A stretch of DNA of 64,000 nt from Candidatus Zhuqueibacterota bacterium (GTDB lineage: Bacteria > Zhuqueibacterota > Zhuqueibacteria > Thermofontimicrobiales > Thermofontimicrobiaceae), in the NCBI GenBank assembly GCA_049322915.1, contig JBMOPW010000036.1, positions 120,431-184,430 of the forward strand, in the 5' to 3' direction. Numbering within the stretch: position 1 is the stretch's first letter; every line of letters starts with the position of its first letter. Shown piece after piece: positions 10,305 to 45,538 of this stretch. Under the pieces are notes generated by a model. That model was not told the DNA's origin. It worked only from the letters and a program-made list of their open reading frames with translations, and did no database searches. The position numbers were made by a program, and so were the translations under genes.

Positions 10305-10339
10305 TTGCGTCTCTGTGAATTTAGAGCATTCAAATTATG

Positions 10340-10511: not shown

Positions 10512-10544
10512 TTGGGCCGTTAAAATCAACAGCCCATTCACTTT

Positions 10545-10617
10545 GGACCCATAGCTCAGTTGGTAGAGCAGCGGACTCATAATCCGTTAGTCGTAGGTTC
10601 GAGTCCTACTGGGTCCA
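10545..10617 (+). tRNA. tRNA with CAT anticodon, most likely tRNA-Ile2 (lysidine); CCA end not encoded
   Basis: GGACCCA/TGGGTCC acceptor stem, D-arm AGCTCAGTTGGTAGAGC, anticodon loop CT-CAT-AA, T-loop TTCGAGT. The GG start and A37-A38 resemble Ile2 rather than initiator or elongator Met. Confidence 0.93.
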
Positions 10618-10626
10618 CAAAATTTG

Positions 10627-10665
10627 GCCTTTAAGAATTAATATCATAGAGGCCTTTTTTTATTT
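10627..10665 (+). terminator. Terminator after the tRNA
   Basis: GGCCT...AGGCC followed by a long T-run. Confidence 0.55.
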
Positions 10666-11030
10666 ATTCAATATGCTTCCGCACTCTATATTCCTTTTCC
10701 ATTTTTCACCATCGTAACTCCAGTTCTTCCCTTTTTTAAACGTTAGTCATGTATTTGGCGCGCGTGCCGGGTTCTTTCCAACGATTTCCAGTCTGAGTTC
10801 GATTATTTATTTTTGTAGTCATTCCACCAGTTTCTGAATTCGCCGGCAGACTGGCGACGGCTGGCGGTCCGATTTTCAAAAGTTGACTCTTCTCACTCCA
10901 TTGGATTGATTTACCTGCCTATATTTTGGGGAGCACTATTCACTCTAAAAAGTCCTCATTTAAATATGTTATTCTTCCGATAACTTCATTAACAATGCAT
11001 GCTGAACAAACATGTCCAGAAAAATTGCCC

Positions 11031-12686: not shown

Positions 12687-12963
12687 CAGAGAGTTTGCTG
12701 AGAAATCCACCAGGCCTCGTCTCCGAGTCAGGAAGATTAAGATTAGCGTTAGAATTTTTCAATTCAATAATAATACTTCAGCATCATGCGCTTCGAATGT
12801 GGATATTGGCTTTTAGATTCCTACCGCCAAAAAAATGTAAGCAGGGAATTCTTTTCATTATGATAATTGAGTCAAGTCACCCATCTTTTGTATTATAAAG
12901 AAAGATAAATCCGTGCTAAACAGTGTCATCCGCGCTCAATGCTTTGTTTTCAAGGTTACTTAA

Positions 12964-14208: not shown

Positions 14209-14223
14209 CGTATTTTTCCTGAT

Positions 14224-16122: not shown

Positions 16123-16151
16123 TGGGGATTAGAAATTCGTTCTTCGATCAT

Positions 16152-16496
16152 TTAATTTTTTCTATTCTGATTTGGGCCTTTGACAGGCAAGTAGCCTTTT
16201 GATGTGTAACGCAAATACCGCGTTTCCGTCTCCGGCACTTTCTCCTCAGCGCCTTCGGAATGTTCTTTCTCCCCTTCCACCGACTTTTCATTTTTCTTGT
16301 CTATGGATGCTGCCGGTTTCAATGCCTCCGGGGTGACATATTCCGCCTGAAAAGCCTGCTTCGTATGGGCAGCCGCTCCCTTGCCCCGGCTCTCGCGAAT
16401 TTTGAACATGACGTAGGCGCCGAATGCAAATACGAATGTCGATACTGTTGCCACGAGCACAATGAACGCTAAAATAGGAATTATTTCCATCTTCAT
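16152..16496 (-). CDS. Small single-pass membrane protein, candidate synthase accessory subunit
   Basis: N-terminal TM helix and charged tail; 9 bp downstream of the GT2. Confidence 0.7.
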   Translation of the reverse strand: MKMEIIPILAFIVLVATVSTFVFAFGAYVMFKIRESRGKGAAAHTKQAFQAEYVTPEALKPAASIDKKNEKSVEGEKEHSEGAEEKVPETETRYLRYTSKGYLPVKGPNQNRKN

Positions 16497-16505
16497 TCTC
16501 CAGAA

Positions 16506-17909
16506 TTATTTTGCTGATAAACCGATTCTTTCCAACTTGCCCCAGGTCATGTCGAATCCCAAAAATTCTTCGATGGTTGCCGCGACTTTTGTGATATCAA
16601 TGGTCAGCACAAAAAAGAGCCGATAGAAAATCGCGTATGGAATGAGCTTCAGATCTTCCTTGTCGGCCGCCACGCAGTAAATCGCCGCCATGATGTCCAG
16701 CAACGCAATGCTCAGCCACCAGAGTGGAATCAGTGTCGTCATGCCGTAAAATATAGCCACAAAAATAAAAAACAGGTTGGCGAAAATATTCATCGCCGGC
16801 CAGATAATGGCGTCGTAAAACATGTTCCACAATACCAGACTGTTCAGCAGATGCTTCCTCGGGTGAAACAAACGCTGACGGTGCTTGGTCAACGATTGTA
16901 ACAATCCGCGCGTCCATCGGTAGCGTTGCTTGAGCAATTGATAAATGGATTCCGGCGCTTCGGTATAGGCCACGGCTTTGGGTTCGTACACAATGTGCCA
17001 GCCAGCCTGCCGAATTTTGAGGGTCAAATCGGCGTCCTCTGCGTATGTATCGCTGGAATACCAGCCGGCATCGATAATTGCCTGCTTACGGAAAATGCCT
17101 ATAGGCCCGGGGATGATATTCACCATTCTCAGATAGCTCTGCGACGAACGAACCATATTCAAACCTTCAACATATTCCAAAGACTGAAGATTGGTCAGTA
17201 ATTTATAATCGTTCAATACCTTTACCTTGCCGGCGACAGCGCCGACAGTGGGATCGGCGAAATATTTCGCCCCGATCCTCAGCGTCGTCGGCGACAGCGT
17301 GGAATCGCCGTCCATGCACAGGACGAAATCCGCACTGGAAAAATGAATGCCGGCATTGAGCGCGCTGGATTTCCCGCCGTTCTCTTTGTTGATGAGCGAA
17401 ACGCGGACCGTGGCATGTTTGCCCGGGTGCAGACCGACTAATTTTTCCGCCACTTCGTGAGTTTTGTCCGTTGACCCATCGTTCACAATAATGATTTCAT
17501 AATTGGGGTAATCCTGGGTCAGCAACGATTTCACCGAATCCTCAATGACCTTTTCTTCATTGTAAGCCGGAACGATTATGGAAATGAACGGGAAAAAATC
17601 GCTTTTATCCCGGGCTGAATATTTCGCGAAGAATAAAAAGCTGGCCACCAGCGTTACAAAATAGCGTATCAGCAACAGTGCAAGGAAAAACAGGAGAGCG
17701 AAAATCGAAGCGTTGACGATGAGGCCGCTCATGGACAGGCGCGTGAGTGGCATTGTGAAATAGATGGCGGCAATTAAAAACATGGAGGCAATGGCGGATG
17801 AGGCGATGACACCTAACAACGTGGCCTCGCGGTCTTTGGGAATTGCCCGCTGTTCCATATTGGGAATGACAGCCTGTTTTCTGAACAGGTTTGGTTCTTT
17901 CTCCATCAT
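16506..17909 (-). CDS. Processive family 2 glycosyltransferase (PgaC/IcaA-like polysaccharide synthase)
   Basis: IIVPAYNEE, DGSTD, ENGGKSSALN, MDGD, AED and QRYRW motifs with flanking TM helices. Confidence 0.9.
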   Translation of the reverse strand: MMEKEPNLFRKQAVIPNMEQRAIPKDREATLLGVIASSAIASMFLIAAIYFTMPLTRLSMSGLIVNASIFALLFFLALLLIRYFVTLVASFLFFAKYSARDKSDFFPFISIIVPAYNEEKVIEDSVKSLLTQDYPNYEIIIVNDGSTDKTHEVAEKLVGLHPGKHATVRVSLINKENGGKSSALNAGIHFSSADFVLCMDGDSTLSPTTLRIGAKYFADPTVGAVAGKVKVLNDYKLLTNLQSLEYVEGLNMVRSSQSYLRMVNIIPGPIGIFRKQAIIDAGWYSSDTYAEDADLTLKIRQAGWHIVYEPKAVAYTEAPESIYQLLKQRYRWTRGLLQSLTKHRQRLFHPRKHLLNSLVLWNMFYDAIIWPAMNIFANLFFIFVAIFYGMTTLIPLWWLSIALLDIMAAIYCVAADKEDLKLIPYAIFYRLFFVLTIDITKVAATIEEFLGFDMTWGKLERIGLSAK

Positions 17910-17958
17910 GACTTTTTCAATCCCAGGATAATATTGACTGCAGATCCTTCAACTCCAA

Positions 17959-20847
17959 TTAAAAAAGACTCCAGTAGGCCGAGAATGAACCGGAAAAATA
18001 ATTATAACTGGAATCAAAACGAAACGAGCTGCCTGCGCTCAACTGCGCGTTTATCACCAGCCGTTTTGCCGGCTGATATTTGACTGCGACATCGAATTGC
18101 CGGAGAATGATATCCAGCGCCGGCAAATACCCGACTTTCCCACTGAAGCGAATGTCCATTTTTTCGGTAAGCGTCGGCTGCCAATCCGTCCACAGAGAAT
18201 GGGAATCGAGATTTTGAGGCGAATAATACAATCCCTGGGAACCGCCGCTGTTCGGCAAAGGCGGCGCAAGGTATTTGTAATTCAGGTATTGCGTCTCGTA
18301 ACCGAAGGTCAGCGTTTTGAACATTCCTTTGCCAATTCGTGCCAGCACATCATTGCCTTTGTTGCCGTCGGAAATGGACAAATAGCTGAAATGCCCGGCT
18401 AAAATAATCTTTGAATCACTTTGATATTTGCCAGTGAATTTATAGAAATCAACATCGAAGCGCCGATCCATCAAAAACGGTGAATACAAAATGAGCGCAC
18501 CGTCGGTGTTTTCATAATACAAAGAGGCTGTCAGAGATTCATCCATTTTTATATTGAGCGAAGCGTCATATACCGAACGGCCGGTTTCATTGGCAGTATT
18601 GAGAACGCCGTAACCGCTGTTCAGCGACAGTTGCTCCGAAAACTTCAGAATCAGCCTGCCTTTCAAGGTGTTGAATTTTCGGTTTTGATCTTCAGAATTG
18701 ACCGTCGCCTGAATCAACGATACTGCCGTCGTTAAAAACGGGAATAATCCGACATGAAAACTGCCGCCCACGTGCTGAATTTGAAAATGCTGATTATCCG
18801 AATAATAGCTCGCTATCGGATTCAAGCCAAGATGGTTGGGTATTTGAGAGAGCAGTTTCGCGGCGCCCGATTTTGGCAAATAGCTGAAACGCGTTTTCAC
18901 CATCGCCTTCTGTTCTGAATTCAAATCCTGCGCTGACAAGTCCTTATATATTTCGCGAGCCCGGTCGTATTCTTTCAGGCGCAATAAGGTATCGCCATAG
19001 AATAATCGGCACTCAAAATGATCCGGCTTCTGCTGGCAGAGCTGCTCGAATTCGAATCTGGCGCGATCCAGTTCCTCGTTCCAGAGCAAGGCTTTCGCAC
19101 GGCGCACGGCGATGTTGAAATCAAACTCTTCATTGAGCAGCGCATCATAAATGCTGATCGCCTTTCCCAAATTCTTCATGCTGATATTCAATTCAGCATA
19201 TTCCACCTGGACCGAACGTGGGGGATGGATCACCCGGTCAAAATAGGAATCGAATTTTTCCAGCGCCTCGTCATATTTTTGTTGCGCGATGAGTTCCCGT
19301 CCCTGCTGCAAGATGGTGAAAACCTTTCGCTGCGAAGCTGCCTGCACTTCGGTTTGATAATATTTTTCAACCGGCGCTATCTCCCTGTTTTCCGGATCGA
19401 CGGCTTTGGCCAAGAGCAAATATTCATTGGCCCGATCGAGTTCCTGCCTGGCAATGTGCAACGAACTGAGCGTGAGTATGGCGATTACATTCCGCGGTTG
19501 ATGATTATGGACGTTTTCCAAATACTTCTGCGCTGCGGTCAGGTCTTTATTCGACCACACCAGTGTCTGTCCCAGGAGCAGTTGATAATCAAGATTATCC
19601 GGATCGCTGACAATCAATTCGTGCAACACCCTTTGCGCGGTTTCCAGTTGGCCGTACCAGGCGCAGTGCTGGGCATAACGAAAAGCCATGTTCGGATCGG
19701 ATTCCATTGATACGGTGTTAAAATAGGTCGCCATAATTTTGATGGCATTTTCGTGAGCGCCCACATTGTTATAAAATGTGCTCAACTTCATCACCACGTT
19801 TGCATTGGATGGATCTGCCTCAAATTTCCCGTAATAGTCAGTGATGAGGATTTGATACACACTGTCTTTCAGCGATTTGACTAGTGGCAATCCGGCGGAA
19901 CCGCTGTGTTTTTCGTAAAGTTCAATGTGACCAGCCGCTTGTTCAAACTGCCGCTGATTCATCAATTCGCGAATGAGCTTCCATCTGACCTTATTGTTTT
20001 CAGGATTCGTTCTCAACTCCTCTAAGTACCGCTCTGTTTCAGACTTATTCGGGACTGAAGCCGGCTGTCCATCACATTGATAATTTGAAGCGGCAGCATT
20101 TGCCTTTCGAGGTCCTCCTTTTGCCAGTTCCAATCCATCCTGGGCTTCTTTATAAAATGGTTTCAGTTCCAGCGCCCGTTCGAATGTTTGAATGGCCTGT
20201 GAATATTTCCCCAGCCACATTAAAAAATAGCCGTAGCGACTGATCAGCGTGTAATCGTTGGGGAATCGGTTCACAAATTTTAGCAGGATTTCTTCGCCTT
20301 TTTTTAGTTGATTATTATTCGCCAGAATTTCGGCGTAGCGAATCACTTTTTCTGAACTGACATCCGTCATTTCAAAGTATTTGCCATACCAGTTTTCTGC
20401 TTCGTCCCACTGATCCAGTTCTTCATAGCATTGACCAATCGCGTAATAATTCTGAGACAGCTTCGGATTGATCATCAATTCGCGCTTATAATTTTCAATT
20501 TTTTTCAGGATGATCTGCTCATGCTGAGACTGCGTGCGGATTAAATTCTGTTTATAACTTTCATTGGGCGGGTCAAGTTTTACAGCCTGTCGAAAATCAA
20601 TCACTGCATAACGATATTGCGAGCGTTTTTCATAACAGAGCCCCCGCAGATTGAAGGCGTCCGCCATTTCCGGGTATTGGGAGATCAATTCGCTCAGAAT
20701 AGAAATCGCTTCGCCAAATCGCCCTGCTGAAATATGTTTGGATGCTTCGTGCTTCAATGAATTCGGACTCGTCTGCGCATAAATCCCATTGATCAGCCCG
20801 CACATGCATAAAAAAACGATGGCATATTTTATTTTCATTGTTCTCAT
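17959..20847 (-). CDS. TPR-repeat plus C-terminal beta-barrel export protein (PgaA/BcsC-like architecture)
   Basis: Signal peptide, about 650 aa of TPR repeats, C-terminal region with alternating aromatic beta-strands ending in F. Confidence 0.75.
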   Translation of the reverse strand: MRTMKIKYAIVFLCMCGLINGIYAQTSPNSLKHEASKHISAGRFGEAISILSELISQYPEMADAFNLRGLCYEKRSQYRYAVIDFRQAVKLDPPNESYKQNLIRTQSQHEQIILKKIENYKRELMINPKLSQNYYAIGQCYEELDQWDEAENWYGKYFEMTDVSSEKVIRYAEILANNNQLKKGEEILLKFVNRFPNDYTLISRYGYFLMWLGKYSQAIQTFERALELKPFYKEAQDGLELAKGGPRKANAAASNYQCDGQPASVPNKSETERYLEELRTNPENNKVRWKLIRELMNQRQFEQAAGHIELYEKHSGSAGLPLVKSLKDSVYQILITDYYGKFEADPSNANVVMKLSTFYNNVGAHENAIKIMATYFNTVSMESDPNMAFRYAQHCAWYGQLETAQRVLHELIVSDPDNLDYQLLLGQTLVWSNKDLTAAQKYLENVHNHQPRNVIAILTLSSLHIARQELDRANEYLLLAKAVDPENREIAPVEKYYQTEVQAASQRKVFTILQQGRELIAQQKYDEALEKFDSYFDRVIHPPRSVQVEYAELNISMKNLGKAISIYDALLNEEFDFNIAVRRAKALLWNEELDRARFEFEQLCQQKPDHFECRLFYGDTLLRLKEYDRAREIYKDLSAQDLNSEQKAMVKTRFSYLPKSGAAKLLSQIPNHLGLNPIASYYSDNQHFQIQHVGGSFHVGLFPFLTTAVSLIQATVNSEDQNRKFNTLKGRLILKFSEQLSLNSGYGVLNTANETGRSVYDASLNIKMDESLTASLYYENTDGALILYSPFLMDRRFDVDFYKFTGKYQSDSKIILAGHFSYLSISDGNKGNDVLARIGKGMFKTLTFGYETQYLNYKYLAPPLPNSGGSQGLYYSPQNLDSHSLWTDWQPTLTEKMDIRFSGKVGYLPALDIILRQFDVAVKYQPAKRLVINAQLSAGSSFRFDSSYNYFSGSFSAYWSLF

Positions 20848-21151: not shown

Positions 21152-21895
21152 TTATGCCACTGATGCGATTTTGATTTCCTGGTTGATTGAAGTCGAAGCC
21201 GTTTCATCATAGTTATTTGGGAAATAGGTGGCTTGATCACAACGATCGAAATCGGATACAACTCTCATTCGGTTGTTCGGTTTAGTAACGTTGGAATTGG
21301 ATATCCTTTTGTCAAGTTGAATATTCCCAGTTGCAATGTTTTGCAATTGTTTTTGGAGACTGGCATTGTCGGAATCAGACTGGTCCTGAATAATAAATAT
21401 GCTGGTGATGAGCATGTCTTCCAGACTTTCAATAATTTCAGTGAAAACGTCTACGAACAGATCTTTATCATTGAAATCCATGTACGGGGTCAGTTCATCA
21501 AAAATGATATTGGAAGGATTGAATTCATTCACAGCGTTCAAAAGATCATAAAGGAACTCTGACAAGAGCGAATCGCGATCCTGGCCATTTTCTTCCATCC
21601 GCAACGGGGCTGTGCGCAGGATGATCAATTTATTTTCATCGATCAACGGTTGAATTTCCATTCCTTGCGCATGCGCTGCCACAATAAGTTTTCTCGGGCG
21701 TATTTCCGTAAAATACAAAGTTACCTCACCTTGCAAGGCAGCGTTGTAGGCATATTGTAATGCCAAAGTCGTTCTACCTGATTTTGAAGGACCGTTTACG
21801 ATATAGGTGCTACCATTATAAAAACCACCCCATTTGTTATCGATCAAGTCAATCCCTGTTGTCTTCAATGTCACTGTCTTGTTCATCATATTCAC
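21152..21895 (-). CDS. KaiC/RAD55-like RecA-superfamily ATPase domain protein
   Basis: TTGIDLID..WGG, variant Walker A GPSKSGRT, Walker B IIFDE. Confidence 0.8.
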   Translation of the reverse strand: MNMMNKTVTLKTTGIDLIDNKWGGFYNGSTYIVNGPSKSGRTTLALQYAYNAALQGEVTLYFTEIRPRKLIVAAHAQGMEIQPLIDENKLIILRTAPLRMEENGQDRDSLLSEFLYDLLNAVNEFNPSNIIFDELTPYMDFNDKDLFVDVFTEIIESLEDMLITSIFIIQDQSDSDNASLQKQLQNIATGNIQLDKRISNSNVTKPNNRMRVVSDFDRCDQATYFPNNYDETASTSINQEIKIASVA

Positions 21896-22354: not shown

Positions 22355-23845
22355 TCAGTCAACCCGTGAAATTAGTTTTACATTTTTTAGATTTGCTCCG
22401 ATCAGGTATTTCATGTTGTAGAACTTACCCCACGGTATTTCGTGTCTCGGTGACATCTGGTCAGCTACTACAATGACTTCTCGCCCTGCCTCTTTCTTGT
22501 ATTCGCGGAAGATGCAAGAGTGTCCAGTTACCGGCGGTAATTTTTCCTTTGTGTCCCCGTCTCTCACAACCTTATACGCCCTCTTGTCGACCCACAATTG
22601 CAGAAAAGCACCAGCCTTTAGGCCGGCAGGCCAAGCCTGCTCGTCTTCTTGTGAAATTATAAATTCATCTTCGTGTACAAGTCGGGCATAGCGAAGTGCG
22701 CCTGCTGCTCCGGCTCCTCTGCAAACCCCACCGAGGATGTTTTTATAGCCTTTCCAGGAGGGTGAATTATATCGGCTTACCCAAAAGTGTATGAAGGGCC
22801 ATCTATGTACAACAACGTAGTGGCCATCACTTCCTTCCCAGGCCATACGAGGTATCTCGTACCGAATTGATTTTTTTTCTTTACCTAACATTAAATTCGT
22901 AGTGAGAGCCGATGCCCCGAGTATTCGTGTGCAGACTTTGGAGAAAATGTAAAGGCTAGTTCCGACACATCGAAGAGGTGCAAAAAGAGCATGGTAGGCG
23001 CTCTTCCCTTCTTTCATGTAATATTGCTTTTCTAATACATTTGTCAGATATGATTCAACGCGGTTTTGCAGAAGAATTTCTTCACCGGCTGCTAAGTAGC
23101 GGACTCTTTGGATGAGTTCCTCCAATGTGCCCGGGTTTGTTCCATACTCATACAGGAACTCTAAAACCGAAGCATCATCCACAGTTGCGGATTCAGCAGG
23201 GTGAAAAAATGCTTGCTGCTCTTCACTGGAGAGAAAAGAGGAATCCGGCTCTTCACTCGTAATTTGAGGATCGTCCTCTTGCAAGGCAGATGGCGCCTCC
23301 GACTCGGTCTGACCGACGCGATATCGCCCTGGCCTGTTCTCGATGTTTTGCGACATTTCCTTGCCAGCGACCAATCCGTACTGATTAGCTTTTTCTATTT
23401 CATCAAAGTCAATCAGCGGCGCTTCCGCAGCCTCATTTGTTTCCAGTTCAAACTCGATCAGGTTCTCTTCTTTCCCTTGGTTTATCAGCGCGTGCTGTGC
23501 ACCTTGAGATGGCTCTTCTCGCTCGCCAACTCCGACTTGAGAGGGTTCAGCAGTGCTATCCGGGTCGTAAATAGGATTTGCCTCACGAAGCGAACCAGGC
23601 TGTACTCCGTCTCTCAGACCATCAGATTCAATCGATTGTGTCTCTGCAGCACGCCATAGACGATCTTCAAACCCATGGAGAAATGGATGATCGGCAATCA
23701 GATTCGCCAAACGCCCTTCCCACTCGGCCTCAGCCTCCTTGTTGAACAATTCTTCATCAAGGAAAGGAGATTCTAGGTCTCCCATCATATAGGCACGCAG
23801 TGTTTTATCTTTCTCATCTTGCATGTTCATCACCGATCCTTTCAT
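22355..23845 (-). CDS. Hypothetical protein: acidic leader plus C-terminal Cys/His (NlpC/P60- or CHAP-like) domain
   Basis: 496-aa ORF; N-terminal half very E/D-rich; C-terminal RCVGT...GHSCIF...VADQ. Confidence 0.7.
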   Translation of the reverse strand: MKGSVMNMQDEKDKTLRAYMMGDLESPFLDEELFNKEAEAEWEGRLANLIADHPFLHGFEDRLWRAAETQSIESDGLRDGVQPGSLREANPIYDPDSTAEPSQVGVGEREEPSQGAQHALINQGKEENLIEFELETNEAAEAPLIDFDEIEKANQYGLVAGKEMSQNIENRPGRYRVGQTESEAPSALQEDDPQITSEEPDSSFLSSEEQQAFFHPAESATVDDASVLEFLYEYGTNPGTLEELIQRVRYLAAGEEILLQNRVESYLTNVLEKQYYMKEGKSAYHALFAPLRCVGTSLYIFSKVCTRILGASALTTNLMLGKEKKSIRYEIPRMAWEGSDGHYVVVHRWPFIHFWVSRYNSPSWKGYKNILGGVCRGAGAAGALRYARLVHEDEFIISQEDEQAWPAGLKAGAFLQLWVDKRAYKVVRDGDTKEKLPPVTGHSCIFREYKKEAGREVIVVADQMSPRHEIPWGKFYNMKYLIGANLKNVKLISRVD

Positions 23846-23849
23846 TCAG

Positions 23850-24953
23850 TTATCTCACTGCTACTTTACCTGCTTTAACGTCATGGCCGGTAATAATGGA
23901 CCAGTGGGTTATGATCATCCGCAGGTCAGCTTCAGGACCTGGACCCGAAAAGCTAGCCGGGTACGCTGTACCTTTCGTATAGAGTTCAATAACCTTTGCT
24001 GAATTATTATACGTTTTCATTTCAATTTGTATTAGAATTCTGGAGATAGGATCCGCGATATCAAAAAGACTACTGGAGAGACCGTGTGCGGGGAGTCCGA
24101 CGCGTTGAGCTATTTTATAAAGACGCTGTTCTGCACCAGTCGCTTGGGCCCTGAGGTCTTCAATGATTGATGGTTCAGGATCGGTTTCGATAGTCAGATG
24201 GAACCACGACATCATTGAGACGAGTGCAAATTCTTCGCGAGAGAGACTACCATCCTTCCTTCGCGACAATAGCATGTCAGACAGCCTATTAAGCAAAGTA
24301 ATAATTTTTGCATCATCGATTGGCTTGGGTGCAGCACTGGCGGAAATATGTGTCATGCCGATCCATACTTCACGTAGCAATTCCTCAAACGTTATCACGA
24401 ACTCGTTGTTTGCAGCATCAGCTCTGATGTACGGATAAGGCTGACCGTCGTCTTTACCATGGTTCAGATCCATGCCGAACATTCGCTGGTAAGCATTCCT
24501 CCGAGTCGCTCTCATATCTGGGCGTATATGGCTAACAATGGATGTAATAGTTAATGGGAGAGGATCCTTGTAAAAGAGTTCCTCGGTGTTATGCATCCAT
24601 TGTTGGCTTTCCGGGCTAAGGGTTCCGAGTTTCTCTCCGTGTAAGAATTCAATAAGAACGCGATTAAAGATTTCATATATCCTTGTATTCTCGATCATGT
24701 AAGCGTAAATCAGGTGATCCCACATAGCTGGAACTGTCAATCCTCTGCCAAAGGCATTCAAATTCCTATTGAGCATTGATGAAGAAGCAATTTTACTTCT
24801 ATTAACTGGGGTACCAATTATCGTTCCCGTAACAGTTTTGTTGCGCCAGGTTAATTCTAGCAGTTTGAGTAGTTCAAAAGGGTGTGCCTGGAAAAGAGTT
24901 CTAGCTCCATTTGGTAAGCTTGCTCCATTTTGTTTGACAAATTCTCTAAACAT
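23850..24953 (-). CDS. Hypothetical protein (WDHLIYAYMIENTR motif)
   Basis: 367-aa ORF with a strong AAGGAGG ribosome-binding site; 4 bp from the next gene. Confidence 0.8.
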   Translation of the reverse strand: MFREFVKQNGASLPNGARTLFQAHPFELLKLLELTWRNKTVTGTIIGTPVNRSKIASSSMLNRNLNAFGRGLTVPAMWDHLIYAYMIENTRIYEIFNRVLIEFLHGEKLGTLSPESQQWMHNTEELFYKDPLPLTITSIVSHIRPDMRATRRNAYQRMFGMDLNHGKDDGQPYPYIRADAANNEFVITFEELLREVWIGMTHISASAAPKPIDDAKIITLLNRLSDMLLSRRKDGSLSREEFALVSMMSWFHLTIETDPEPSIIEDLRAQATGAEQRLYKIAQRVGLPAHGLSSSLFDIADPISRILIQIEMKTYNNSAKVIELYTKGTAYPASFSGPGPEADLRMIITHWSIITGHDVKAGKVAVR

Positions 24954-25325
24954 AGTTGTTCCTCCTTACAAAATCTTTGTTCCTAAGTAAAGGCAATTAA
25001 TCAGATAATTAGCTTGTCTCTAGTTTATCGCTGAAGTCTTTACGCTCATTAATGGCATTCTTTACGTCATTTTTAAGCCGGGGAATTGCTGCTTTGGCTC
25101 TATTATGAAACGATTTGAATAACGTTATCACTTCATTGTCCTGCTCACAGGTGAAGAAATGATTGCATTAATTTATATGGAAATTGACTTGAACATTTTT
25201 TCAATCTCATCGATCTGTTGCTTTAAGCCCTTTCTGTACTGCAGTTGTTCATAAGTATACATCTCTTTCTTTGGCTTTGAATTATTCTCATAGGGGTTAT
25301 AGCGTTTTTAATATTCCTTGGCTGC

Positions 25326-26588
25326 TTAAGCAACCTGCAAAGCGCCGCCAAGTTTTAACATCCATTCTTCTGGTTGCCCCAATGTGCCTGTCTTTCTTTC
25401 TGGCTTTGTCGCCATGTGAAGACCGGTGAGCGCCAGCAACCGTATCGCCTCAGTCCAAATCCAATGCATTGAGGTGTACAGCGCCACCCCGAGTTGCTGT
25501 TCGAGTGCCAGCAAGACATCGGGTTTGACGCGCCCGGGATTAATGAGGGTTGCCAGCGAACGCCCGCCGAAAGCCCGCATGGGTTCAATCAACGTTATCT
25601 CTACAATACGTGGGAGCAAGGGCAGGGAAGCGCGGACAAGTGTTTTGGTTGCGCTTAGCGCCTTTTCGAGTGAATACACATCCGCCCAGGCCCGGGCTAA
25701 ATTATCCCAGGGACCTGCTTCATAAAACTGCCGGCACATCTCTACCCCAAGCAACAACCTTAAAAATCCAATAGGATGGGGATCGCCTGGTATATTCCGA
25801 AAGACCAGCGCTTCTTCACCCGCCAGAACGTCGTGCAATGCTGCGATACTGGCGTAGCCTGTATGTACAAAGGCGAAAGCGTCGGCGGCGATTTCAGAGG
25901 CCCAGCTTGACCACGCCTCAACTATTTCACTCGGCAGATCAGGCAGGTTCGCTATCAGTTTAGCGGCAAGTTCTTCGTTCCAGCTTAAAATGTGGGCAAT
26001 CTGATGGCCGGCTTCATGAATCAATGCAGTAGGGCGCAGCAGGTTATGCCGTGTAATTTTGACAACCGCAACAGGATTCACGCTGGTACCGTCCCAAAGC
26101 CGCAAGCCAGCTTTGAGAATAGAAGCACCCAATCCCTTATCGATATATGTCAATACGACCGGCGTTGGTTTGCCAAGCAAATCAAGAAGTTGAGTCATAC
26201 TTCGATGTGCCAGGGTATCACAAGCTCTTAAATAACCTGCAATCTTGTGGTTAGTCCGTGTGTTGATCGCGTCAGCGTAAAAGTCCAGCGTGGTCTCGAC
26301 GCGCATATAGCGAGTACGGAAGGCGATCAACTGCCGTCGCACGGCTGATAGTTGGGTGGCGGTGAAAGCTGCGGCGAGCGCGGCTTGTAATAATGTAGCC
26401 TCACGGTCTAACTGAACGATCACTGCCGAAAGGTGCTGCCGGATGGACAATCCAAGGTAGCGCTCGATGCCGTTCCACGCAGCAGACGAGGCCAGGTCAT
26501 CCATGTTCTGAAGCCGCGCGACAGCATCGACCCAATGGGCGACCTGGCAGGCGAGTTGCATTTTCATTTCAAGGTACAAGTCATTCAT
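25326..26588 (-). CDS. HEXXH zinc metallopeptidase-like protein
   Basis: LIHEAGHQIAH followed by SEIAADAFA (third ligand) and DPHP; ATG at 26588 overlaps the upstream stop codon. Confidence 0.75.
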   Translation of the reverse strand: MNDLYLEMKMQLACQVAHWVDAVARLQNMDDLASSAAWNGIERYLGLSIRQHLSAVIVQLDREATLLQAALAAAFTATQLSAVRRQLIAFRTRYMRVETTLDFYADAINTRTNHKIAGYLRACDTLAHRSMTQLLDLLGKPTPVVLTYIDKGLGASILKAGLRLWDGTSVNPVAVVKITRHNLLRPTALIHEAGHQIAHILSWNEELAAKLIANLPDLPSEIVEAWSSWASEIAADAFAFVHTGYASIAALHDVLAGEEALVFRNIPGDPHPIGFLRLLLGVEMCRQFYEAGPWDNLARAWADVYSLEKALSATKTLVRASLPLLPRIVEITLIEPMRAFGGRSLATLINPGRVKPDVLLALEQQLGVALYTSMHWIWTEAIRLLALTGLHMATKPERKTGTLGQPEEWMLKLGGALQVA

Positions 26589-28956
26589 GGATATATCCCG
26601 CATTGATTTTTATTTTTATCGTGGGTACGCCATCCGACACCTTCAGACTTGGAAGGGAAAGTCCCTTTCCTTTTAGCGCCTGGCGCAGTTGAGCGAACCC
26701 CGGGATATTGCCAAGGGTGATCACAACCGTTACCCCGTCAGCAGTATCCTCGGTTGCCTTGATAAACTCCTCAGCGCCTCGCTTCAGATGGTCGGCAAGT
26801 CCTTTAACAACCCATTCCTGTAGCCGGCTAAGGAGAACTTGTGGTACAAGAGATGGTAATCGTTGAAGCGCACCTGACCGCTGGTCTGGCGTCACGGACT
26901 CATGAATGACTTTTAAACGTCCATAGGAGCCTTTAATAGCTTTATGCAGTCCCCGCTCGATATATCTTCGTAAGCGCGCTGTGACTGTGCCGATGTGGGC
27001 ATGCTGACGAAGTTTAACTGCGACCTCTTGAGAACGAATTTCACTGAGAAACAAGTAAACTCTGACTTCGTTCTTAGGGAAGTCAAGGATCAGCCTCACC
27101 TTTGTAGCTCGCCTCATATTGACTCGACCGGCTGGCCCTGGAATTGTGAGGGGACGCTTTCCCGGAATCTCCAGATAGTAAAAGCGCTGCCCTTCTGCTA
27201 TGACATTTCGGTCGCTTTCAAGGTGTGGATCGATTTCGCGACCCAGGTCTGGTTCTCCCAATAACAGCGTGGCAGCTTGGCGGGTCAGGGGATGGAGTTG
27301 GTCGCGCCCATTCGCTGAGCCAAACCCCGGAGTATTTTCCTCTTGTTGAGCGATGTCCGATAGCCGTGTCCCGGAGATCGCCTCGTAAAGATGGACGATG
27401 GCTTTGACCTCCTCGCCTGGAGTTATTCCAAGTTGCTCCTCTAATAGCTCATCAAGAGTAACGCCTTCAAAGGTTTCGAGGTCTGCCACTTTGTACGGAG
27501 TGAGTTGAGTGGGAATTTTTCGACTATATTTCTTGTACCGCTTTCGACGGTTGCGTGGCATCATGACCCAAACGCCCTGGAGCTTTTTAGTCTCTCTGAG
27601 TTCAGGACGCTTTCGATAGGTATCTTCCGGAAGAACGGGCGGAAGATTAGCAGAAGCAGCCTGTTCAAATGTTTCAAGCGCAGTGCCCTCGAGAAATTCC
27701 TGGTTATCAAGGATATAATTCGGAGCGGCGGCTACACCTCGCACAGTTTCCTCGATGGTGGCGGCAATTGCCTCAGCGGCTGCTCGGGAATTATCTACGG
27801 GCGTCGCTTCCAACTGGATGAGTCGCAAGCCAGCATCTACAATTGCTTGAGAGAGAGCAGGCGCATACTTTGGGCCAACGAACTTCTGAATCAGCCTGCC
27901 CATGAGCTTTGCCAGGAAACCTACAACTTTTTTCCGACCCATGAGTCTTATCCCCATTTGCAAGGCAGGAAGAACGGCCGGCAAAAAATTTTCAACGTAG
28001 GGAGTCGGGTCTTCCCCCTCCTTCAGACCTCTCAGGTTCTCTATAAACAGGTCTCTAGCACGGTCCAACTCGGCTAAAGGATAAGTATCAGAAGTCTCTT
28101 GATCAGTGAGTGCTTTAGCGACTTCCAAATCCTGCTCCACCTCGGTGTGGGAGAACAGGATGTTTGCGACCTGTTGATCAAACTCCTGTTGAATCTCAGC
28201 CACCTCGTAGGTCGGAATAGCCCCTGATACGGATTCATAGATATCCTCAACTTCTTTCAATAAAGGAAGGCGTTCTGCCAGCTTTTTTGCGATGGGCTGA
28301 ACTGAAGCCGGTAGCTTGCGAATGGCGAACCTGATGACGCGCATGAGCAGTGGTTTGATTAGCTGCTTGAGCTTAGGAAGAATGAGCGAAATGCCTCCCG
28401 TAGCCATAGCTGTTATGCCCTTTTTTGCAAGCGAAACGGCTTTCTTTGCCACCTTCTTGATGCCTTTTTTGAGATTCCCTAAAAATTCCTCGAAGCTGGG
28501 TGACAGTTCAACTGAAGGTCGATACCGGTCAACAATGGTATCGATTTCGTCTTCGGTGAGGGTACTTGGATCATGCTGACGAAACTCCCTGGCGAAAGCC
28601 TCAAACATGGCCTCGGCCTCGGCAACGAGAGGGGCGAAATGTTGATCGAGGAGTCGTTCAGTATAACCGATCATCTGGATATTTTCTTGCTCGTGCATGA
28701 AGTATGTCTCGTAGATGGCCGCGGCTTCATTCACCAGGCCGGACAGAGCCTCATCGAATTCTTCATCATAAAGCTCATTCAAAAATACGACGTACTCTTC
28801 AGCCACAGGATCGACCAAGCCACCGCCTTCTTCCGACTCATAGAGCGACAAGAAGGGGCTATTCGGGGGAACAAAAAGCTCTCGTTCACCAATCTTTCCA
28901 TTTCCTTCCTCCATTGTAAAACTGCTAATATCCAAAAAAGGTGCTTGATTCTTCAT
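26581..28956 (-). CDS. Large hypothetical protein with acidic segments and cationic amphipathic helices
   Basis: 791-aa ORF with AAGGAG ribosome-binding site; no signal peptide. Confidence 0.8.
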   Translation of the reverse strand: MKNQAPFLDISSFTMEEGNGKIGERELFVPPNSPFLSLYESEEGGGLVDPVAEEYVVFLNELYDEEFDEALSGLVNEAAAIYETYFMHEQENIQMIGYTERLLDQHFAPLVAEAEAMFEAFAREFRQHDPSTLTEDEIDTIVDRYRPSVELSPSFEEFLGNLKKGIKKVAKKAVSLAKKGITAMATGGISLILPKLKQLIKPLLMRVIRFAIRKLPASVQPIAKKLAERLPLLKEVEDIYESVSGAIPTYEVAEIQQEFDQQVANILFSHTEVEQDLEVAKALTDQETSDTYPLAELDRARDLFIENLRGLKEGEDPTPYVENFLPAVLPALQMGIRLMGRKKVVGFLAKLMGRLIQKFVGPKYAPALSQAIVDAGLRLIQLEATPVDNSRAAAEAIAATIEETVRGVAAAPNYILDNQEFLEGTALETFEQAASANLPPVLPEDTYRKRPELRETKKLQGVWVMMPRNRRKRYKKYSRKIPTQLTPYKVADLETFEGVTLDELLEEQLGITPGEEVKAIVHLYEAISGTRLSDIAQQEENTPGFGSANGRDQLHPLTRQAATLLLGEPDLGREIDPHLESDRNVIAEGQRFYYLEIPGKRPLTIPGPAGRVNMRRATKVRLILDFPKNEVRVYLFLSEIRSQEVAVKLRQHAHIGTVTARLRRYIERGLHKAIKGSYGRLKVIHESVTPDQRSGALQRLPSLVPQVLLSRLQEWVVKGLADHLKRGAEEFIKATEDTADGVTVVITLGNIPGFAQLRQALKGKGLSLPSLKVSDGVPTIKIKINAGYIHE

Positions 28957-29052: not shown

Positions 29053-29382
29053 TTATTTTATCCCCGATGAAGGACTATCTGTATTGGATTGAAGTTGACT
29101 TATTCCTTTTAATGAAAATTTAACCTTTAATGGCCATCGCACATATTCACTGGAATTTGGCATATCGATTATTCCATTGTGATTTTTATCCAGACCATAT
29201 CCATCATCGAGGGTGAATTCTAACTGGGGGTTTGATGGAGCAGGAATAGGAATTGGAATCAGTCGTTCATTAACCCGTTGTGGTTGTGCCTGAGTTGGAA
29301 CTGCAAATAATAAAAACGAAAGGAGTAAACATAATATTACATTCTTATTAAAAGAAAATAACTGAGAAATTAGCATATTCAT
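29053..29382 (-). CDS. Signal-peptide protein, probably a truncated remnant
   Basis: Sec signal ending TQA, EF-hand-like DKNHNGIID, abrupt end. Confidence 0.5.
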   Translation of the reverse strand: MNMLISQLFSFNKNVILCLLLSFLLFAVPTQAQPQRVNERLIPIPIPAPSNPQLEFTLDDGYGLDKNHNGIIDMPNSSEYVRWPLKVKFSLKGISQLQSNTDSPSSGIK

Positions 29383-29573: not shown

Positions 29574-31001
29574 TTACTTAACACGCATAAGAAGCATTCG
29601 GAAAGGTTTATTTTGATATACTTCTCCATTCTCATACCAAATACTAATTCCTAAATTAGTCAGAGAATAGGATATTGATTCATCGTCAAAAGCATCTTCA
29701 AAACTTCCCTGCCCTTTCCAATGCGAGTCCCACTTTTTAATTTCAAGACAAATGACGCGCGTGTTGTTCATATCAAATCCAGATGGATAACTTATAAATG
29801 TCGGAGGGCTTGAAGTCGCTGTCCGTCCGGTTATTTGCATAATCTGCAAGATAGAAACACCAGACGCACCCAATTTTAGCCCATCATCTCCTACGACCAG
29901 GACTTGACCTGAAAGATACACATCTCCGCTTATATTGACATTGGGTGGTTCATTTTCACCGCCGGGGGAATCGATAAAATAAAATGTATTGTTATGATAA
30001 TCTATAAAATCAGCCGAAACGCCAGCATGGCCGAATGAAAGGTAATTTTCTCCCTGCAGACCGACGCTATTCGGTTCAACACTATTTGGAAATCTCAGCC
30101 CCCGAAAATAACCAATACCATTTACGGCCAGTTTGTATTGTGGATCGCCGAAACCAATACCGACATTGCCGTTGCTTTTTATCGTAAAGGCATCAATAAG
30201 TCGATTTTGAGTTCCATCACGAAAAAATCGAATTGTTTCTTTACCAGATGGACCAGCATTATCAATCTCCCATGCTCCCTGATTATCCCCATCAACCAGC
30301 GTTATTTGGCCACCTTCCTCACCTTCACCGGTGATCACAACAGATCCTTCGACTTCCAGTCCGTTACCATCAATCTGAACCGGGCCGGCATCTGCCACAA
30401 TTTTACGTCCGGCACCGGGACCACCGAAATCATAGGCCTGATCCAGCGTGCCACCACCAGTTCCACCCCCTTTTGCTGCCGTTGTTTGGGTGCTGCCATC
30501 CGGAAATTTAAAGCCGCCTTCAGTAGAATGGATGGGACCTTTCACCTGCAGCTTAGCCGTGGGATTGTCCAGGCCAATCCCCACATTTCCCTGAGTCGGA
30601 AAAACATTTGTACTGCCCTGAACAGAACCTGCCGTGTAAGCATACGGCACACTGGCAATTTGCTGCCTCGGACTCAAGGTCTCATTTCCGATGACGATTT
30701 CTAGAAATCTCGTTTTATCAGAAAAAATATCCATTGGAATCGGATTCTGACTCCCTAATAAGATACTGAATACTCCCTGGTTGATAGGTACGCTGGAATT
30801 AACTTCTTCCCAGCGTTTTTCACCGCCGGTCAATGCCGTATAAATTCGAAACGTCATACTTTGGTTTTGGTTAATTGGATCACCGTTATTATCCGTTAAA
30901 TAGCCCTGATAAAAAATCACTTGCGGAATTTTCTGGGCATTCAGACTGCTGGCCAGAATTGCCAGAATCATCATCATCATAAAATAAATTTTGAATTTCA
31001 T
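29574..31001 (-). CDS. Secreted tail-fibre/adhesin-like protein
   Basis: Signal peptide; YQGYLTD...GVFSILLG...PRQQIASVPYA N-domain; two GNVGIG beta repeats; FPDGSTQTTA; TLDQAYD. Confidence 0.75.
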   Translation of the reverse strand: MKFKIYFMMMMILAILASSLNAQKIPQVIFYQGYLTDNNGDPINQNQSMTFRIYTALTGGEKRWEEVNSSVPINQGVFSILLGSQNPIPMDIFSDKTRFLEIVIGNETLSPRQQIASVPYAYTAGSVQGSTNVFPTQGNVGIGLDNPTAKLQVKGPIHSTEGGFKFPDGSTQTTAAKGGGTGGGTLDQAYDFGGPGAGRKIVADAGPVQIDGNGLEVEGSVVITGEGEEGGQITLVDGDNQGAWEIDNAGPSGKETIRFFRDGTQNRLIDAFTIKSNGNVGIGFGDPQYKLAVNGIGYFRGLRFPNSVEPNSVGLQGENYLSFGHAGVSADFIDYHNNTFYFIDSPGGENEPPNVNISGDVYLSGQVLVVGDDGLKLGASGVSILQIMQITGRTATSSPPTFISYPSGFDMNNTRVICLEIKKWDSHWKGQGSFEDAFDDESISYSLTNLGISIWYENGEVYQNKPFRMLLMRVK

Positions 31002-31084: not shown

Positions 31085-31636
31085 TCATTTCACCAACAAC
31101 ATTCGCTTCACCGCTGAAAAATCTTCTGTAGAAATCTGGTAGAGATAAACGCCGCTTGGAACCGGCAAACCTTGCTGGTCTCGTCCGTTCCAGATTAACT
31201 GATAATTACCAGGCGATTTCAATGGCTCATTTAATTCCCAAATGAGTTGTCCGATGGTATTATAAATTCTAATGGTCAGGGGTGAAGCTTTCAGTAGACT
31301 GTACCGGATTGTTGTTGTTGGATTAAATGGATTCGGATAATTTTGCTGAAGCTGATACTCCTGCGGGAGCAGATCGAAAAAGGATGATGAATCCACCATC
31401 GTACTTCCTGCAAAACCACCGTTCAATTTAAAGTGTTGACTTCTGGCCTCGCCGGGACAGAATGCACCGAGATTGGATCCCAATAATTTGAAACTCGCTG
31501 AATTAGAATGAGCAGTGCTGCTTAACATTTGTCCTTTTGAAAGTCGAAAACTCCGGCTTTGTTGACCGGCAAGCTCAACAACACCAGTCAGAAAAATGAA
31601 TAACAGAAATAGGATACGTAGCTTGTTCTGTTGCAT
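31085..31636 (-). CDS. Small secreted protein with T9SS type A / FlgD-Ig C-terminal sorting domain
   Basis: LQQNYPNPFNPTTTIRY...WNGRDQQG..VPSGVYLY...MLLVK. Confidence 0.88.
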   Translation of the reverse strand: MQQNKLRILFLLFIFLTGVVELAGQQSRSFRLSKGQMLSSTAHSNSASFKLLGSNLGAFCPGEARSQHFKLNGGFAGSTMVDSSSFFDLLPQEYQLQQNYPNPFNPTTTIRYSLLKASPLTIRIYNTIGQLIWELNEPLKSPGNYQLIWNGRDQQGLPVPSGVYLYQISTEDFSAVKRMLLVK

Positions 31637-31684: not shown

Positions 31685-32722
31685 CTACCACGCATATGCC
31701 TCCGGCGCCTCTACTCTCGGTCCTGGCCAAATCTCATCCAGTTTTTTCTTGGTTGATACACTCAACTCAATTTCCAGCGACCGCAAACTTTCGATCAACG
31801 GGTCGACGGTACGCGGCTCCATAATCGGCGCCGTGACCACTGGATTTTTAAACAGCCAGGCCAATGCCACATCCGCCGGCTTTTCACCCAGGGCTTTACA
31901 AAGGAGTTCGTAGGCTTCAATTTTGTCTTTCATCTTTTCAATCTTGTCACCCAGCATGGACCGCCGTCCCTCTTTTGCTTTTATCAATCCGCCAGCCAGT
32001 GAGCCTTCACTCAAAGGGCTATAAGGAATCAGTCCCACGCCATATTCACGACAGGCAGGAATCACTTCCAGTTCTGGAATCCGGGAGTAACGTTTGTATT
32101 GCGTCTGTTCCGCTGCCAGTCCTAAAAAGTGTCGGGCATTGGCGGTTTCACAGGCCAGAGCGATATTCCAACCGGCAAAATTGCTGCTATCGGTATAAAT
32201 GACTTTGTCCTGTTGCATCATAACTTCCATAGCCTGCCAGGTCTCTTCCCATTGTGTCGCTTTTTTCATATGCAGCGGACAATACAACTTCATTCACGGC
32301 AGACTAAACCACGCAATCATACTGGGCAGTATTTCCCCCCGGTCGATGTGATTCATATTGAAGCACATCGATAAGATCCGGTTTCAATCGCCGACGACTG
32401 TTCTCGACCGATTGCCTGATATGAAATGCCGAAAGTCCGAAATCATTGGGTCCCGTGCCCATGGGGATATAAACTTTGGTAGCCAGCACTATTTTTCCCG
32501 GAGCGAGCCATTTACCAATAATCTGTTCGGTAATTCCCTCTCCCAATTTTTCGGAAAAACCGTACACATTCGCCATATCAAAAAAATTGATGCCTGCCTC
32601 CACTGCTGCATCTATAATCTGAAAATTATCGGCTTCATTGGACTCCAGCCAAAATTTATAGTACCCAGACAAAGCCGGCTGACGATGACCCCTGCGCGTC
32701 CTAAAGAGGTGTATTGCATCAT
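31685..32722 (-). pseudogene. Frameshifted aldo/keto reductase
   Basis: MQYTSLGRAGVIVSRLCLGT from 32722 continues in other frames as GINFFDMANVYG...LATKV and SNFAGW...PYSPL...ALAWL; at least two frameshifts. Confidence 0.88.
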
Positions 32723-45533: not shown

Positions 45534-45538
45534 CTCAT

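Follow-up and report, generated by a model that had tools for sequence, protein, structure and literature searches.

A conserved gene trio followed by exchangeable, leader-tagged envelope hydrolases in bacteria and archaea

Organization of the cassette

The window analyzed here, a stretch of 64,000 nt from the genome of a Candidatus Zhuqueibacterota bacterium (contig JBMOPW010000036.1, positions 120,431 to 184,430), contains a cassette of four genes, designated A, B, C, and D, at positions 22355 to 28956 of its minus strand (Table 1). In this copy and its relatives, a conserved A-B-C trio is followed by one or more variable enzymes that share a bipartite SPF-type leader and an acidic spacer and lack secretion signals. 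A first-pass annotation, made from the sequence alone, had singled out four co-oriented genes of 791, about 420, 367, and 496 aa as a candidate protease-activated toxin or export system, and the open reading frame (ORF) calls agree with it on the genes (425 aa for B from its first ATG). The 8-nt overlap of A and B that it reported fits a B start at Met6 (26588), from which most homologs align or begin, and the overlap is 23 nt if the first ATG of B is used. C and D indeed lie 4 nt apart (23846 to 23849), and B and C are separated by 372 nt (24954 to 25325), a gap missing from that annotation. The G+C content of the cassette is 45 to 52%, versus 40 to 41% in the flanking 2-kb stretches on both sides.

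Searches of A to D against Pfam, NCBIfam, PADLOC, and PHROGs produced no matches at meaningful E values; PHROG matches appeared only at E values of ≥0.095, and no PADLOC family was found for A, B, C, or D at an E value of ≤1. As a crude measure of membrane helices and Sec signals, we used Kyte-Doolittle hydropathy, and no 19-residue window in the four proteins exceeded 1.33; no Sec-type signal or membrane helix is therefore evident. A type IX secretion system (T9SS) sorting domain is likewise absent from A to D and present in the neighboring ORF at 31085..31636, so that the contrast with the neighbors drawn in the first-pass annotation holds.

Table 1. Features of the cassette (window coordinates)
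Feature	Position	Strand	Description or basis
Gene A, 791 aa	26581..28956	minus	Conserved leader-bearing protein; homologs upstream of B in 78 loci
A leader, residues 1-45	28822..28956	minus	Two SPF-type motifs
A acidic, largely helical segment, residues 46-160	28477..28821	minus	Charge profile; conserved acidic helix motif behind the leader
A lysine-rich amphipathic helices, residues 161-240	28237..28476	minus	Charge profile, net +15
Gene B, 425 aa (420 aa from Met6 at 26588)	25326..26603	minus	Putative gluzincin-type metallopeptidase, N-terminal three-helix bundle
HEAGH motif, B residues 196-200	26004..26018	minus	H196, E197, G199, and H200 invariant in 27 sequences
B E237 (candidate third ligand) and D241	25881-25895	minus	Invariant in 27 sequences
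B-C spacer	24954..25325	minus	Only small ORFs of 29 aa and 40 aa in the window
Gene C, 367 aa, all-alpha	23850..24953	minus	No recognizable fold or family
Gene D, 496 aa	22355..23845	minus	Variable leader-tagged cargo of this copy
D bipartite leader, residues 23-65	23651..23779	minus	Iterated hidden Markov model and alignment
D acidic spacer, about residues 66-240	23126..23650	minus	Charge profile
D C-terminal domain, about residues 241-496	22358..23125	minus	Possible papain-fold (NlpC/P60-like) hydrolase; ESM Atlas leads only

Conservation, hosts, and mobility

Loci were collected by a pattern scan for C in one genome per species (32 loci) and by an alignment scan for B in 185,579 species genomes (172 matching stretches, of which 80 loci were kept). 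After the removal of 18 loci that repeated contigs of the first set, 89 nonredundant loci remained, in which A, B, and C were assigned with profile hidden Markov models (HMMs). All three genes are present in 78 of these; 10 loci are cut by contig ends in or beside the trio, and a single one, in a Nitrospinales metagenome-assembled genome (MAG) (L023), has C but neither A nor B within 10 kb on each side. The arrangement is far beyond chance, because the same trio occurs in 78 of the 79 nonredundant loci with enough DNA. All loci with the trio keep the order A, B, C on a single strand, with the exception of L011 (C, A, B). The first-pass annotation had proposed a neighborhood check in advance, i.e., whether a conserved trio lies beside variable, leader-bearing cargo genes, and this is the pattern obtained. 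The trio is co-located, and none of A to D matches any characterized system, the two points on which that annotation had staked its proposal.

The hosts belong to about 20 phyla and include two archaeal genera (Methanosarcina and Methanothrix). Among the host groups are Acidobacteriota, Pseudomonadota, Bacteroidota, Actinomycetota, Myxococcota, Cyanobacteriota, Gemmatimonadota, Ignavibacteriota, Planctomycetota, Nitrospirota, Chloroflexota, Bacillota (Paenibacillus), Verrucomicrobia, and others. Some carriers are in culture, such as Aquimarina sp. AU474, Paenibacillus taihuensis, and Streptomyces venetus. Close to the window, the distribution is sparse: among 41 relatives, B was found in the window's genome only, the one other genome of the same genus being without it, and across the phylum it occurs in 5 of 167 genomes, two of these carrying distant variants. 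A quick maximum-likelihood tree of 82 B sequences, with support values from the Shimodaira-Hasegawa-like approximate likelihood ratio test (SH-aLRT) only, places the window's B in a clade of seven rows (SH-aLRT, 98), consisting of the window, Calditrichota, Methanosarcina, Dormiibacterota, Acidobacteriota, Desulfobacterales, and a Bacteroidales MAG. Phylum labels require 30 changes on this tree, versus a minimum of 16. From these sequence comparisons, the cassette is read as horizontally mobile.

A shared leader on exchangeable cargo

When an HMM seeded with residues 1 to 85 of D was iterated over every ORF in the loci, it converged on a bipartite element of 45 residues. This element contains two SPF-type motifs spaced by about 25 residues, with acidic and aromatic residues behind each, and has no hydrophobic core. 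In the window's 6.25-Mb genome, this HMM matches only D (E value, 1.7e-18). All of the 32 nonredundant matches fall within cassettes: the gene after C accounts for 22, A for 4, and further cassette genes for 6. At least 600 nt follow C in 79 loci, and a co-directional ORF is found there in 77. Among these 77 genes, the strict leader HMM picks out 22; another 19 carry two [ST]P[FY] motifs within their first 110 residues, 20 carry a single motif, and 16 lack it. As a background, such a pair of motifs occurs in 4 of 686 other ORFs with a length of ≥300 aa. Tagged proteins are large, at 500 to 1,900 aa, and a very acidic stretch usually lies behind the leader.

The predicted activities of this cargo center on the cell envelope. 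In our own count of Pfam domains over 73 scanned first genes after C, lytic-type domains were present in 55. Domains naming peptidoglycan or the cell wall occurred in 34 of the 73, DUF2272 on its own in 3, trypsin-like domains in 10, PhoD-like domains (usually with DUF7800) in 5, and phospholipase D only, amine oxidase, and DUF2891 in 1 each. The wall domains comprise VanY, Peptidase_M15_2/3/4, M23, M74, Amidase_2, Amidase_6, SLT, Phage_lysozyme, Pesticin, Glucosaminidase, T6SS_VgrG3-like_C, CHAP, PG_binding_1, and OmpA, and many cargo proteins combine several activities (e.g., VanY, M23, and 3D, or phospholipase D, Amidase_2, and PG_binding_1). The earlier expectation of exchangeable toxic payloads is thus right about the exchange and the leader and too broad about the toxicity, since the payloads are overwhelmingly cell envelope hydrolases and not toxins in general. 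The archaeal copies carry such cargo as well, namely, DUF2272, PG_binding_1, and SLT in Methanosarcina and VanY, M15_3, and PG_binding_1, together with a leader-tagged amine oxidase, in Methanothrix. Murein-directed cargo in producers that have no murein suggests that the targets are bacterial.

The gene after C in two loci, L001 (11174-14503) and L003 (11077-14481), is one long open frame that begins with an amine oxidase; the SPF-type leader is internal or near the C terminus (residues 598 to 640 and 1069 to 1100), with DUF2272 or calpain-like parts before or after it. These frames may be fusions, or two genes read through.

In the window, the cargo is D. The acidic leader ascribed to it is borne out, the protein being acidic over residues 1 to 240 (net charge, -5 to -9 in every 40-residue block through residue 240). 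Its amidase-like, papain-fold end is plausible but not established, because it is suggested by ESM Atlas leads only (residues 225 to 496; NlpC/P60, CHAP, and C39 papain-like folds; score, 0.93 to 0.94; template modeling [TM] score, about 0.5), with no match of D in Pfam and none of its C-terminal half among PDB sequences. No relatives of this domain were found in the pattern scan of species genomes or in the 166 other genomes of the phylum.

Gene A carries the cargo leader and a putatively masked cationic segment

Homologs of A are 28 to 64% identical, and every neighbor of A in the ESM Atlas is a "hypothetical protein" cluster. The N terminus of A carries the same leader as the cargo: P6, F7, P34, and F35 are invariant, and both motifs open all 25 of the 25 aligned A sequences. 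An alignment of the A N-terminal profile with the cargo-leader profile (hhalign) had a probability of 94% and an E value of 1.5e-7, with both motifs aligned. In addition, the A HMM matches the first 90 to 160 residues of two cargo proteins, and positions 5 to 93 of the A profile match the N terminus of the Desmonostoc cargo (E value, 1.7e-7). Because A and the cargo bear the same leader, A belongs with the tagged proteins. The proposal of three core genes plus an exchangeable cargo therefore stands for the trio and its exchangeable next gene and has to be revised for A, which is not merely a core component.

Behind the leader, the charge profile of A changes sharply. Residues 1 to 160 have a net charge of -28, and within the lysine-rich segment that follows, residues 164 to 181 form an 18-mer of net charge +7 with the highest helical hydrophobic moment of the protein (0.67). 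The acidic regions and membrane-active-looking helices noted in the first-pass annotation are thereby located. The K-rich character of residues 161 to 240 is kept across the family despite sequence variation (alignment columns 201 to 340). About half of A consists of charged, low-complexity segments, and the 550 residues behind residue 240 matched no family in Pfam, NCBIfam, PADLOC, or PHROGs. A search for shorter relatives of residues 1 to 250 turned up only fragments of A. Two loci, in Paenibacillus taihuensis (L067) and a Hymenobacter MAG (L094), have A, B, and C without a cargo gene, so that A could itself act as a payload.

Gene B encodes a putative zincin

B is the best conserved member of the trio, with a mean column identity of 61%. 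The HEXXH metallopeptidase motif claimed for it is present as HEAGH, and H196, E197, G199, H200, Q201, E237, and D241 are invariant in the 27 sequences compared. The AlphaFold2 model (predicted local distance difference test [pLDDT], 87; predicted TM score [pTM], 0.88) begins with an N-terminal three-helix bundle, which is followed by two strands, the HEXXH helix (residues 192 to 205), and further helices, E237 being on the helix of residues 235 to 248. The residue pattern, i.e., HEXXH with a Glu on a later helix, is putatively of the gluzincin type, as judged from the alignment and the model.

The 27 homologs gave only scattered, chance-level matches in Pfam, and a Foldseek search of the model against the PDB gave no matches at an E value of ≤0.001. 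Searches of the A, B, and C alignment profiles against PDB sequences returned only coiled-coil noise. The B family comprises at least 2,218 clusters at 90% identity; among those listed, all are named "hypothetical protein" and none has a Pfam domain. One B cluster is named from Methanosarcina thermophila (longest recorded contig, 3.19 Mb) and another from a Hodarchaeota MAG.

Gene C and the B-C spacer

The model of C is confident (pLDDT, 83; pTM, 0.86) and all-alpha. Foldseek found no matches for it in the PDB at an E value of ≤0.001 and none among viral predicted structures. The C family forms 677 clusters at 50% identity in 1.84 billion representatives. Many His, Glu, Arg, Trp, and Tyr residues are invariant, and the invariant polar set is rich in Arg; such a set would suit an enzyme and a binder of acidic peptides alike. 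A complex prediction for C and the D leader scored 0.00, a result that counts neither for nor against binding. No longer, fused forms of C were found, which is weak evidence.

The spacer between B and C is itself a recurrent feature (median, 377 nt in loci with a measurable gap). Elsewhere it often holds a small, poorly conserved ORF of 100 to 140 aa, here called X, which was seen between B and C in L006, L012 to L017, L019, L020, L022, L025, L026, L059, and L103. An iterated HMM of X matched 15 of 82 gap sets, the window's among them. The motif of X consists of an aromatic residue and an IK-x-AL-like turn followed by W-x-LP; the first gap ORF of the window (29 aa) resembles the start of this motif and then stops. 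The small gap ORFs are not hydrophobic.

A sister cassette with a distant zincin

Distant relatives of B (24 to 31% identity) are carried by large replicons in Ensifer, Rhizobium, and Paraburkholderia and are also found in two genomes from the phylum of the window. Their context was taken from two loci, one on an Ensifer adhaerens plasmid (L109, 7755-14013) and one in a genome of the phylum (L111, genome G162, 8196-19001). In both, the zincin is accompanied by a protein of about 220 to 240 aa whose acidic N terminus is followed by K/G-rich amphipathic sequence like that of A residues 40 to 235, by a protein of about 700 aa without a recognized family, and by a homologous third ORF (358 and 405 aa), which Pfam scores as aminotransferase-like only in the phylum genome. 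Each locus also has wall-related proteins, with PG_binding_1 in Ensifer and Extensin-like_C and poly-gamma-glutamate hydrolase domains in the phylum genome. As judged from these sequences, the combination of a zincin and an acid-masked cationic protein seems to predate the A-B-C form and to be more widespread, because it is found in the sister cassettes. A sigma-54 activator lies upstream of the sister cassette in L111.

Machinery looked for in and around the cassette

The cassette encodes no transmembrane helix, membrane protein, or ATPase; no transporter gene is conserved near it, and no sensor domain was recognized in it. Pfam scans of the other window ORFs detected no secretion-machine, phage, injection-system, or encapsulin genes, in line with the earlier statement that type VI secretion system (T6SS), extracellular contractile injection system (eCIS), type VII secretion system (T7SS), encapsulin, and phage genes are missing from the surroundings. 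In the window's genome (96% complete), there were no matches to Phage_sheath_1, VipB, or Linocin_M18; a search for the tube protein Phage_T4_gp19 also gave no match, but its control matched nowhere either. Among five other host genomes, Phage_sheath_1 gave a match over the cut-off in one, a match below it in one, and no match in three, including the cassette-bearing Methanosarcina sp. MSH10X1. B does not appear to be phage-borne: it was found by tblastn in none of 50,697 phage records and was not found in IMG/VR.

Full-text literature searches, covering articles without their supplements, returned no description of the trio or the leader. Neither is described in the portions considered here of PMC3482391, PMC12352652, and bioRxiv 10.64898/2026.07.27.741052.

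Other features of the window

The rest of the window is ordinary chromosome, with genes for fatty acid synthesis, RNase III, Ffh, RimM, TrmD, L19, glycoside hydrolases, and TonB-dependent receptors. T9SS sorting domains and SusC-like receptors are present in the genome but do not place the organism in a large phylum such as Bacteroidota, since its phylum comprises only 167 genomes in the collection used. The window also has mevalonate genes and a carotenoid cluster (43821-55758, minus strand) with phytoene synthase, three desaturase-like genes of the amine oxidase fold, lycopene cyclase, an RPE65-type carotenoid oxygenase, a glycosyltransferase, and an acyltransferase, adjoining HMG-CoA reductase and a diphosphomevalonate decarboxylase-like gene.

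The immediate neighbors of the cassette, all on the minus strand, are not kept beside it in other loci. Just downstream of D is a KaiC/RecA-like ATPase of 247 aa (21152-21895) with a weak match to PADLOC mad8 (E value, 1.1e-6). Upstream of A are a 109-aa protein with a signal-like N terminus (29053-29382) and a 475-aa protein (29574-31001) with a match, under the cut-off, to the N domain of the Bdellovibrio "mosaic adhesive trimer" fiber (E value, 1.5e-9) and a match to a phage tail-fiber PHROG (E value, 1.5e-6). A few kilobases from the cassette, an aldo/keto reductase ORF of 202 aa (31685-32293, minus strand) spans only positions 113 to 290 of a 291-position profile and looks like a gene fragment. 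Scans for sigma-70 promoters and terminators gave counts at or below shuffled expectation and were not used.

Comparison with known systems

By analogy, the logic of the cassette is closest to those of polymorphic toxin systems and holin-endolysin lysis, and it fails defining features of each. Polymorphic toxins combine a conserved N-terminal trafficking part with exchangeable C-terminal enzymatic domains, according to the portion considered here of the survey by Zhang et al. (2012, Biol Direct, PMC3482391). The cassette resembles them in its constant N-terminal region and variable C-terminal domains, in its patchy spread across phyla, and in some cargo domains shared with known weapons (VgrG3-like C domains and pesticin-like lysozymes). 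It differs in that its leader and three partners belong to no described trafficking route (type II, V, VI, or VII secretion or the Photorhabdus virulence cassette [PVC] type), its cargo consists mainly of envelope hydrolases rather than nucleases or deaminases, and no adjacent immunity genes were seen.

In holin-endolysin(-spanin) cassettes and lysis-type ("type 10") secretion, signal-less peptidoglycan hydrolases build up in the cytoplasm and need a membrane lesion to gain access to the wall, and a membrane-active partner is encoded alongside them. The cargo of the cassette likewise consists of signal-less muralytic enzymes (for D itself, a papain-fold lead only). In contrast, no transmembrane helix is found in A to D and hence no holin; the candidate membrane-active protein is a soluble proprotein of 800 aa, a zincin and a leader are added, and there is no phage context.

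Cargo is packed via N-terminal leaders in eCIS, too. The cassette cargo shares with eCIS cargo the lack of signals, the disordered N-terminal tag, the association with a zincin, and a similarly broad host range that includes Methanosarcina, Cyanobacteria, and Actinomycetota, whereas neither Phage_sheath_1 nor VipB was found in the window or its genome and 3 of 5 other host genomes gave no Phage_sheath_1 match. A zincin, the PVC-metallopeptidase (DUF4157), is associated with PVC systems in the portion considered of PMC3482391. B, unlike DUF4157, reads HExxHQ and not HExxHxxQ and matches no Pfam model.

Encapsulins and the T4 prohead employ a targeting peptide and a maturation protease. Comparable in the cassette are the short tag, which is borne by unrelated cargo and by the main conserved protein, and the dedicated protease in the operon; the cassette differs in having no detected shell fold or family and in its tag, which is bipartite, N-terminal, and followed by long acidic spacers. 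Bacterial gasdermins are pore formers activated by proteases, and precursors of antimicrobial peptides may have anionic propieces. In A, the cationic amphipathic segment similarly adjoins an acidic segment able to mask it, and a protease gene is adjacent. Unlike gasdermins, A has no Pfam match and hence no sequence relation to them, is far larger, and is part of a cassette that also bears tagged enzymes.

The archaeal copies bear on a further proposal. In the portion considered of Strock et al. (2025, PLoS Biol, PMC12352652), murein hydrolases of archaea are described as usable only against bacteria, 67 of 210 have a known signal peptide, and contractile injection is proposed for those without one. 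The cassette-bearing Methanosarcina genome differs from that proposal in having given no Phage_sheath_1 match. Within the limits of that portion of the source, the cassette is an alternative to contractile injection for at least Methanosarcina and Methanothrix.

A possible cassette for arming and releasing lytic enzymes

The account that we tentatively favor, and that we regard as quite possible in its entirety, including the mechanism, is that of a mobile, self-contained cassette that arms and releases envelope-degrading enzymes as an antibacterial weapon. The shared leader on A and the enzymes, the dedicated zincin, the acidic segment beside a cationic amphipathic one, and the lack of an exporter together suggest stepwise storage, processing, and release. 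All tagged proteins would be made in the cytoplasm as masked proforms and stored there, with the acidic parts neutralizing the cationic helices of A and holding the enzymes idle. The zincin B would then recognize the conserved leader and cut the proforms, and C could serve as a leader receptor, a chaperone, or a regulator of B. Matured A, its membrane-active part unmasked, would permeabilize membranes, and the signal-less lysins would be freed through the membrane breach or by lysis of the producer cell rather than by an envelope-spanning machine, because the cassette encodes no transporter, ATPase, or membrane protein. The freed enzymes would digest neighboring bacteria, perhaps aided by A at the outer membrane of the target. 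More guardedly, A, B, and C and the SPF-type leader could represent an unrecognized release or delivery system that is independent of the envelope type (diderm, monoderm, or archaeal), has only soluble parts (i.e., a zincin, a novel all-alpha protein, and a protease-unmasked, membrane-active carrier), and launches exchangeable cell wall- and membrane-degrading enzymes at competing bacteria.

Several observations weigh against this account. We infer all the steps beyond the existence of tagged proproteins, i.e., cleavage, binding, membrane activity, and release, and this extends to the roles that the first-pass annotation gave to the leaders (targeting or neutralization) and the zincin (maturation) and to export of the products. 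B matches no peptidase family by sequence (Pfam and NCBIfam), and its structure matches are look-alikes of the bundle at residues 1 to 117, residues 145 to 425 being barely covered by the match lists; the Atlas model of A is poor (pLDDT, 0.56). On the cargo side, 16 of the 77 next genes have no SPF motif, 16 of the 73 scanned have no Pfam domain, and 2 of the 73 are plainly unrelated (a pyruvate kinase and a LuxR-type regulator). The archaeal argument consists of two loci and protein names. Lysis-based release kills the producer, and the cassette gives no hint of how lysis would be confined to a few cells. In a crude, ORF-only test, the loci examined had no recurrent small or signal-bearing (immunity-like) gene after the cargo, and the absence of a consistent immunity gene is unusual for interbacterial peptidoglycan hydrolase weapons.

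Alternative explanations

The missing immunity gene fits programmed self-lysis for defense (abortive infection or altruistic death), in which a trigger such as phage infection would activate B and unmask A and the lysins so that the cell lyses before the phage matures. The mechanics would be the same as those favored above, with suicide instead of attack as the purpose. A patchy, transfer-prone distribution like that of defense systems, signal-less cytoplasmic lysins resembling endolysins, and the many multicellular or filamentous hosts (Cyanobacteria, Actinomycetota, Myxococcota, and Methanosarcina) also fit this explanation. However, intact murein-directed enzymes are retained in the copies of Methanosarcina and Methanothrix, whose own cells offer these enzymes no substrate, the cargo includes weapon-like domains (pesticin-like, VgrG3-like C, phospholipase D, and amine oxidase), and the cassette has neither a PADLOC model match nor a recognized sensor domain. 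We consider self-lysis for defense unlikely.

The leader might instead be an export or sorting signal for a host-encoded or unrecognized pathway, with A, B, and C as cytoplasmic helpers (B as a leader peptidase, C as a chaperone, and A as a coexported helper). A conserved N-terminal tag on otherwise unrelated enzymes of the extracellular type is the typical look of a sorting signal, and dedicated leader peptidases are usual for bacteriocins. This explanation is difficult to reconcile with the movement of the cassette among monoderm, diderm, and archaeal hosts, whose only common envelope-spanning exporters are Sec and Tat, with a leader that has no hydrophobic core, and with the lack of a conserved transporter gene nearby. 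Moreover, besides A, only one protein in the window's genome bears the leader. An export signal is accordingly a rather improbable explanation in our view.

We are more doubtful about a protein compartment or particle, in which, by analogy with encapsulins and phage proheads, A and/or C would form a shell or scaffold, the leaders would be encapsulation tags, and B would be a maturation protease. The tag common to a large conserved protein and the cargo, together with a dedicated protease, resembles the T4 prohead logic, and the cassette is self-contained with soluble parts throughout. Against this explanation, C matches neither an HK97-like nor any other shell fold, Linocin_M18 is absent from the window's genome, charged, low-complexity segments make up about half of A, and cargo proteins of 1,000 to 1,900 aa, with their long disordered spacers, would take up much room in a small shell.

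Housekeeping wall remodeling, i.e., regulated autolysins for growth, septation, or development, is highly improbable: peptidoglycan hydrolases do also serve as housekeeping enzymes and many hosts have a developmental lifestyle, but the cassette is found in only 5 of 167 phylum genomes and in none of the close relatives, occurs in archaea that have no murein, shows cargo turnover between close cassettes, and includes nonwall cargo (phospholipase D, amine oxidase, and trypsin-like proteases).

Implications

Each of the three core families comprises hundreds to thousands of sequence clusters; none has a name or a Pfam model, and no structural relative of them was found. Even if the cassette serves defensive self-lysis, a lysis module that has no holin and is triggered by a zincin would be a novelty. 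If the reading as a cassette that arms and releases lytic enzymes against other bacteria is true, it would represent a new route by which prokaryotes arm and release such enzymes, and it would account for the deployment of signal-less peptidoglycan hydrolases by some murein-free archaea. It thus offers a testable answer to the question of how the two thirds of archaeal peptidoglycan hydrolases that have no signal peptide leave the cell. The leader would then be a ready marker for finding new lytic enzymes, and the cargo set would constitute a natural library of multidomain lysins.

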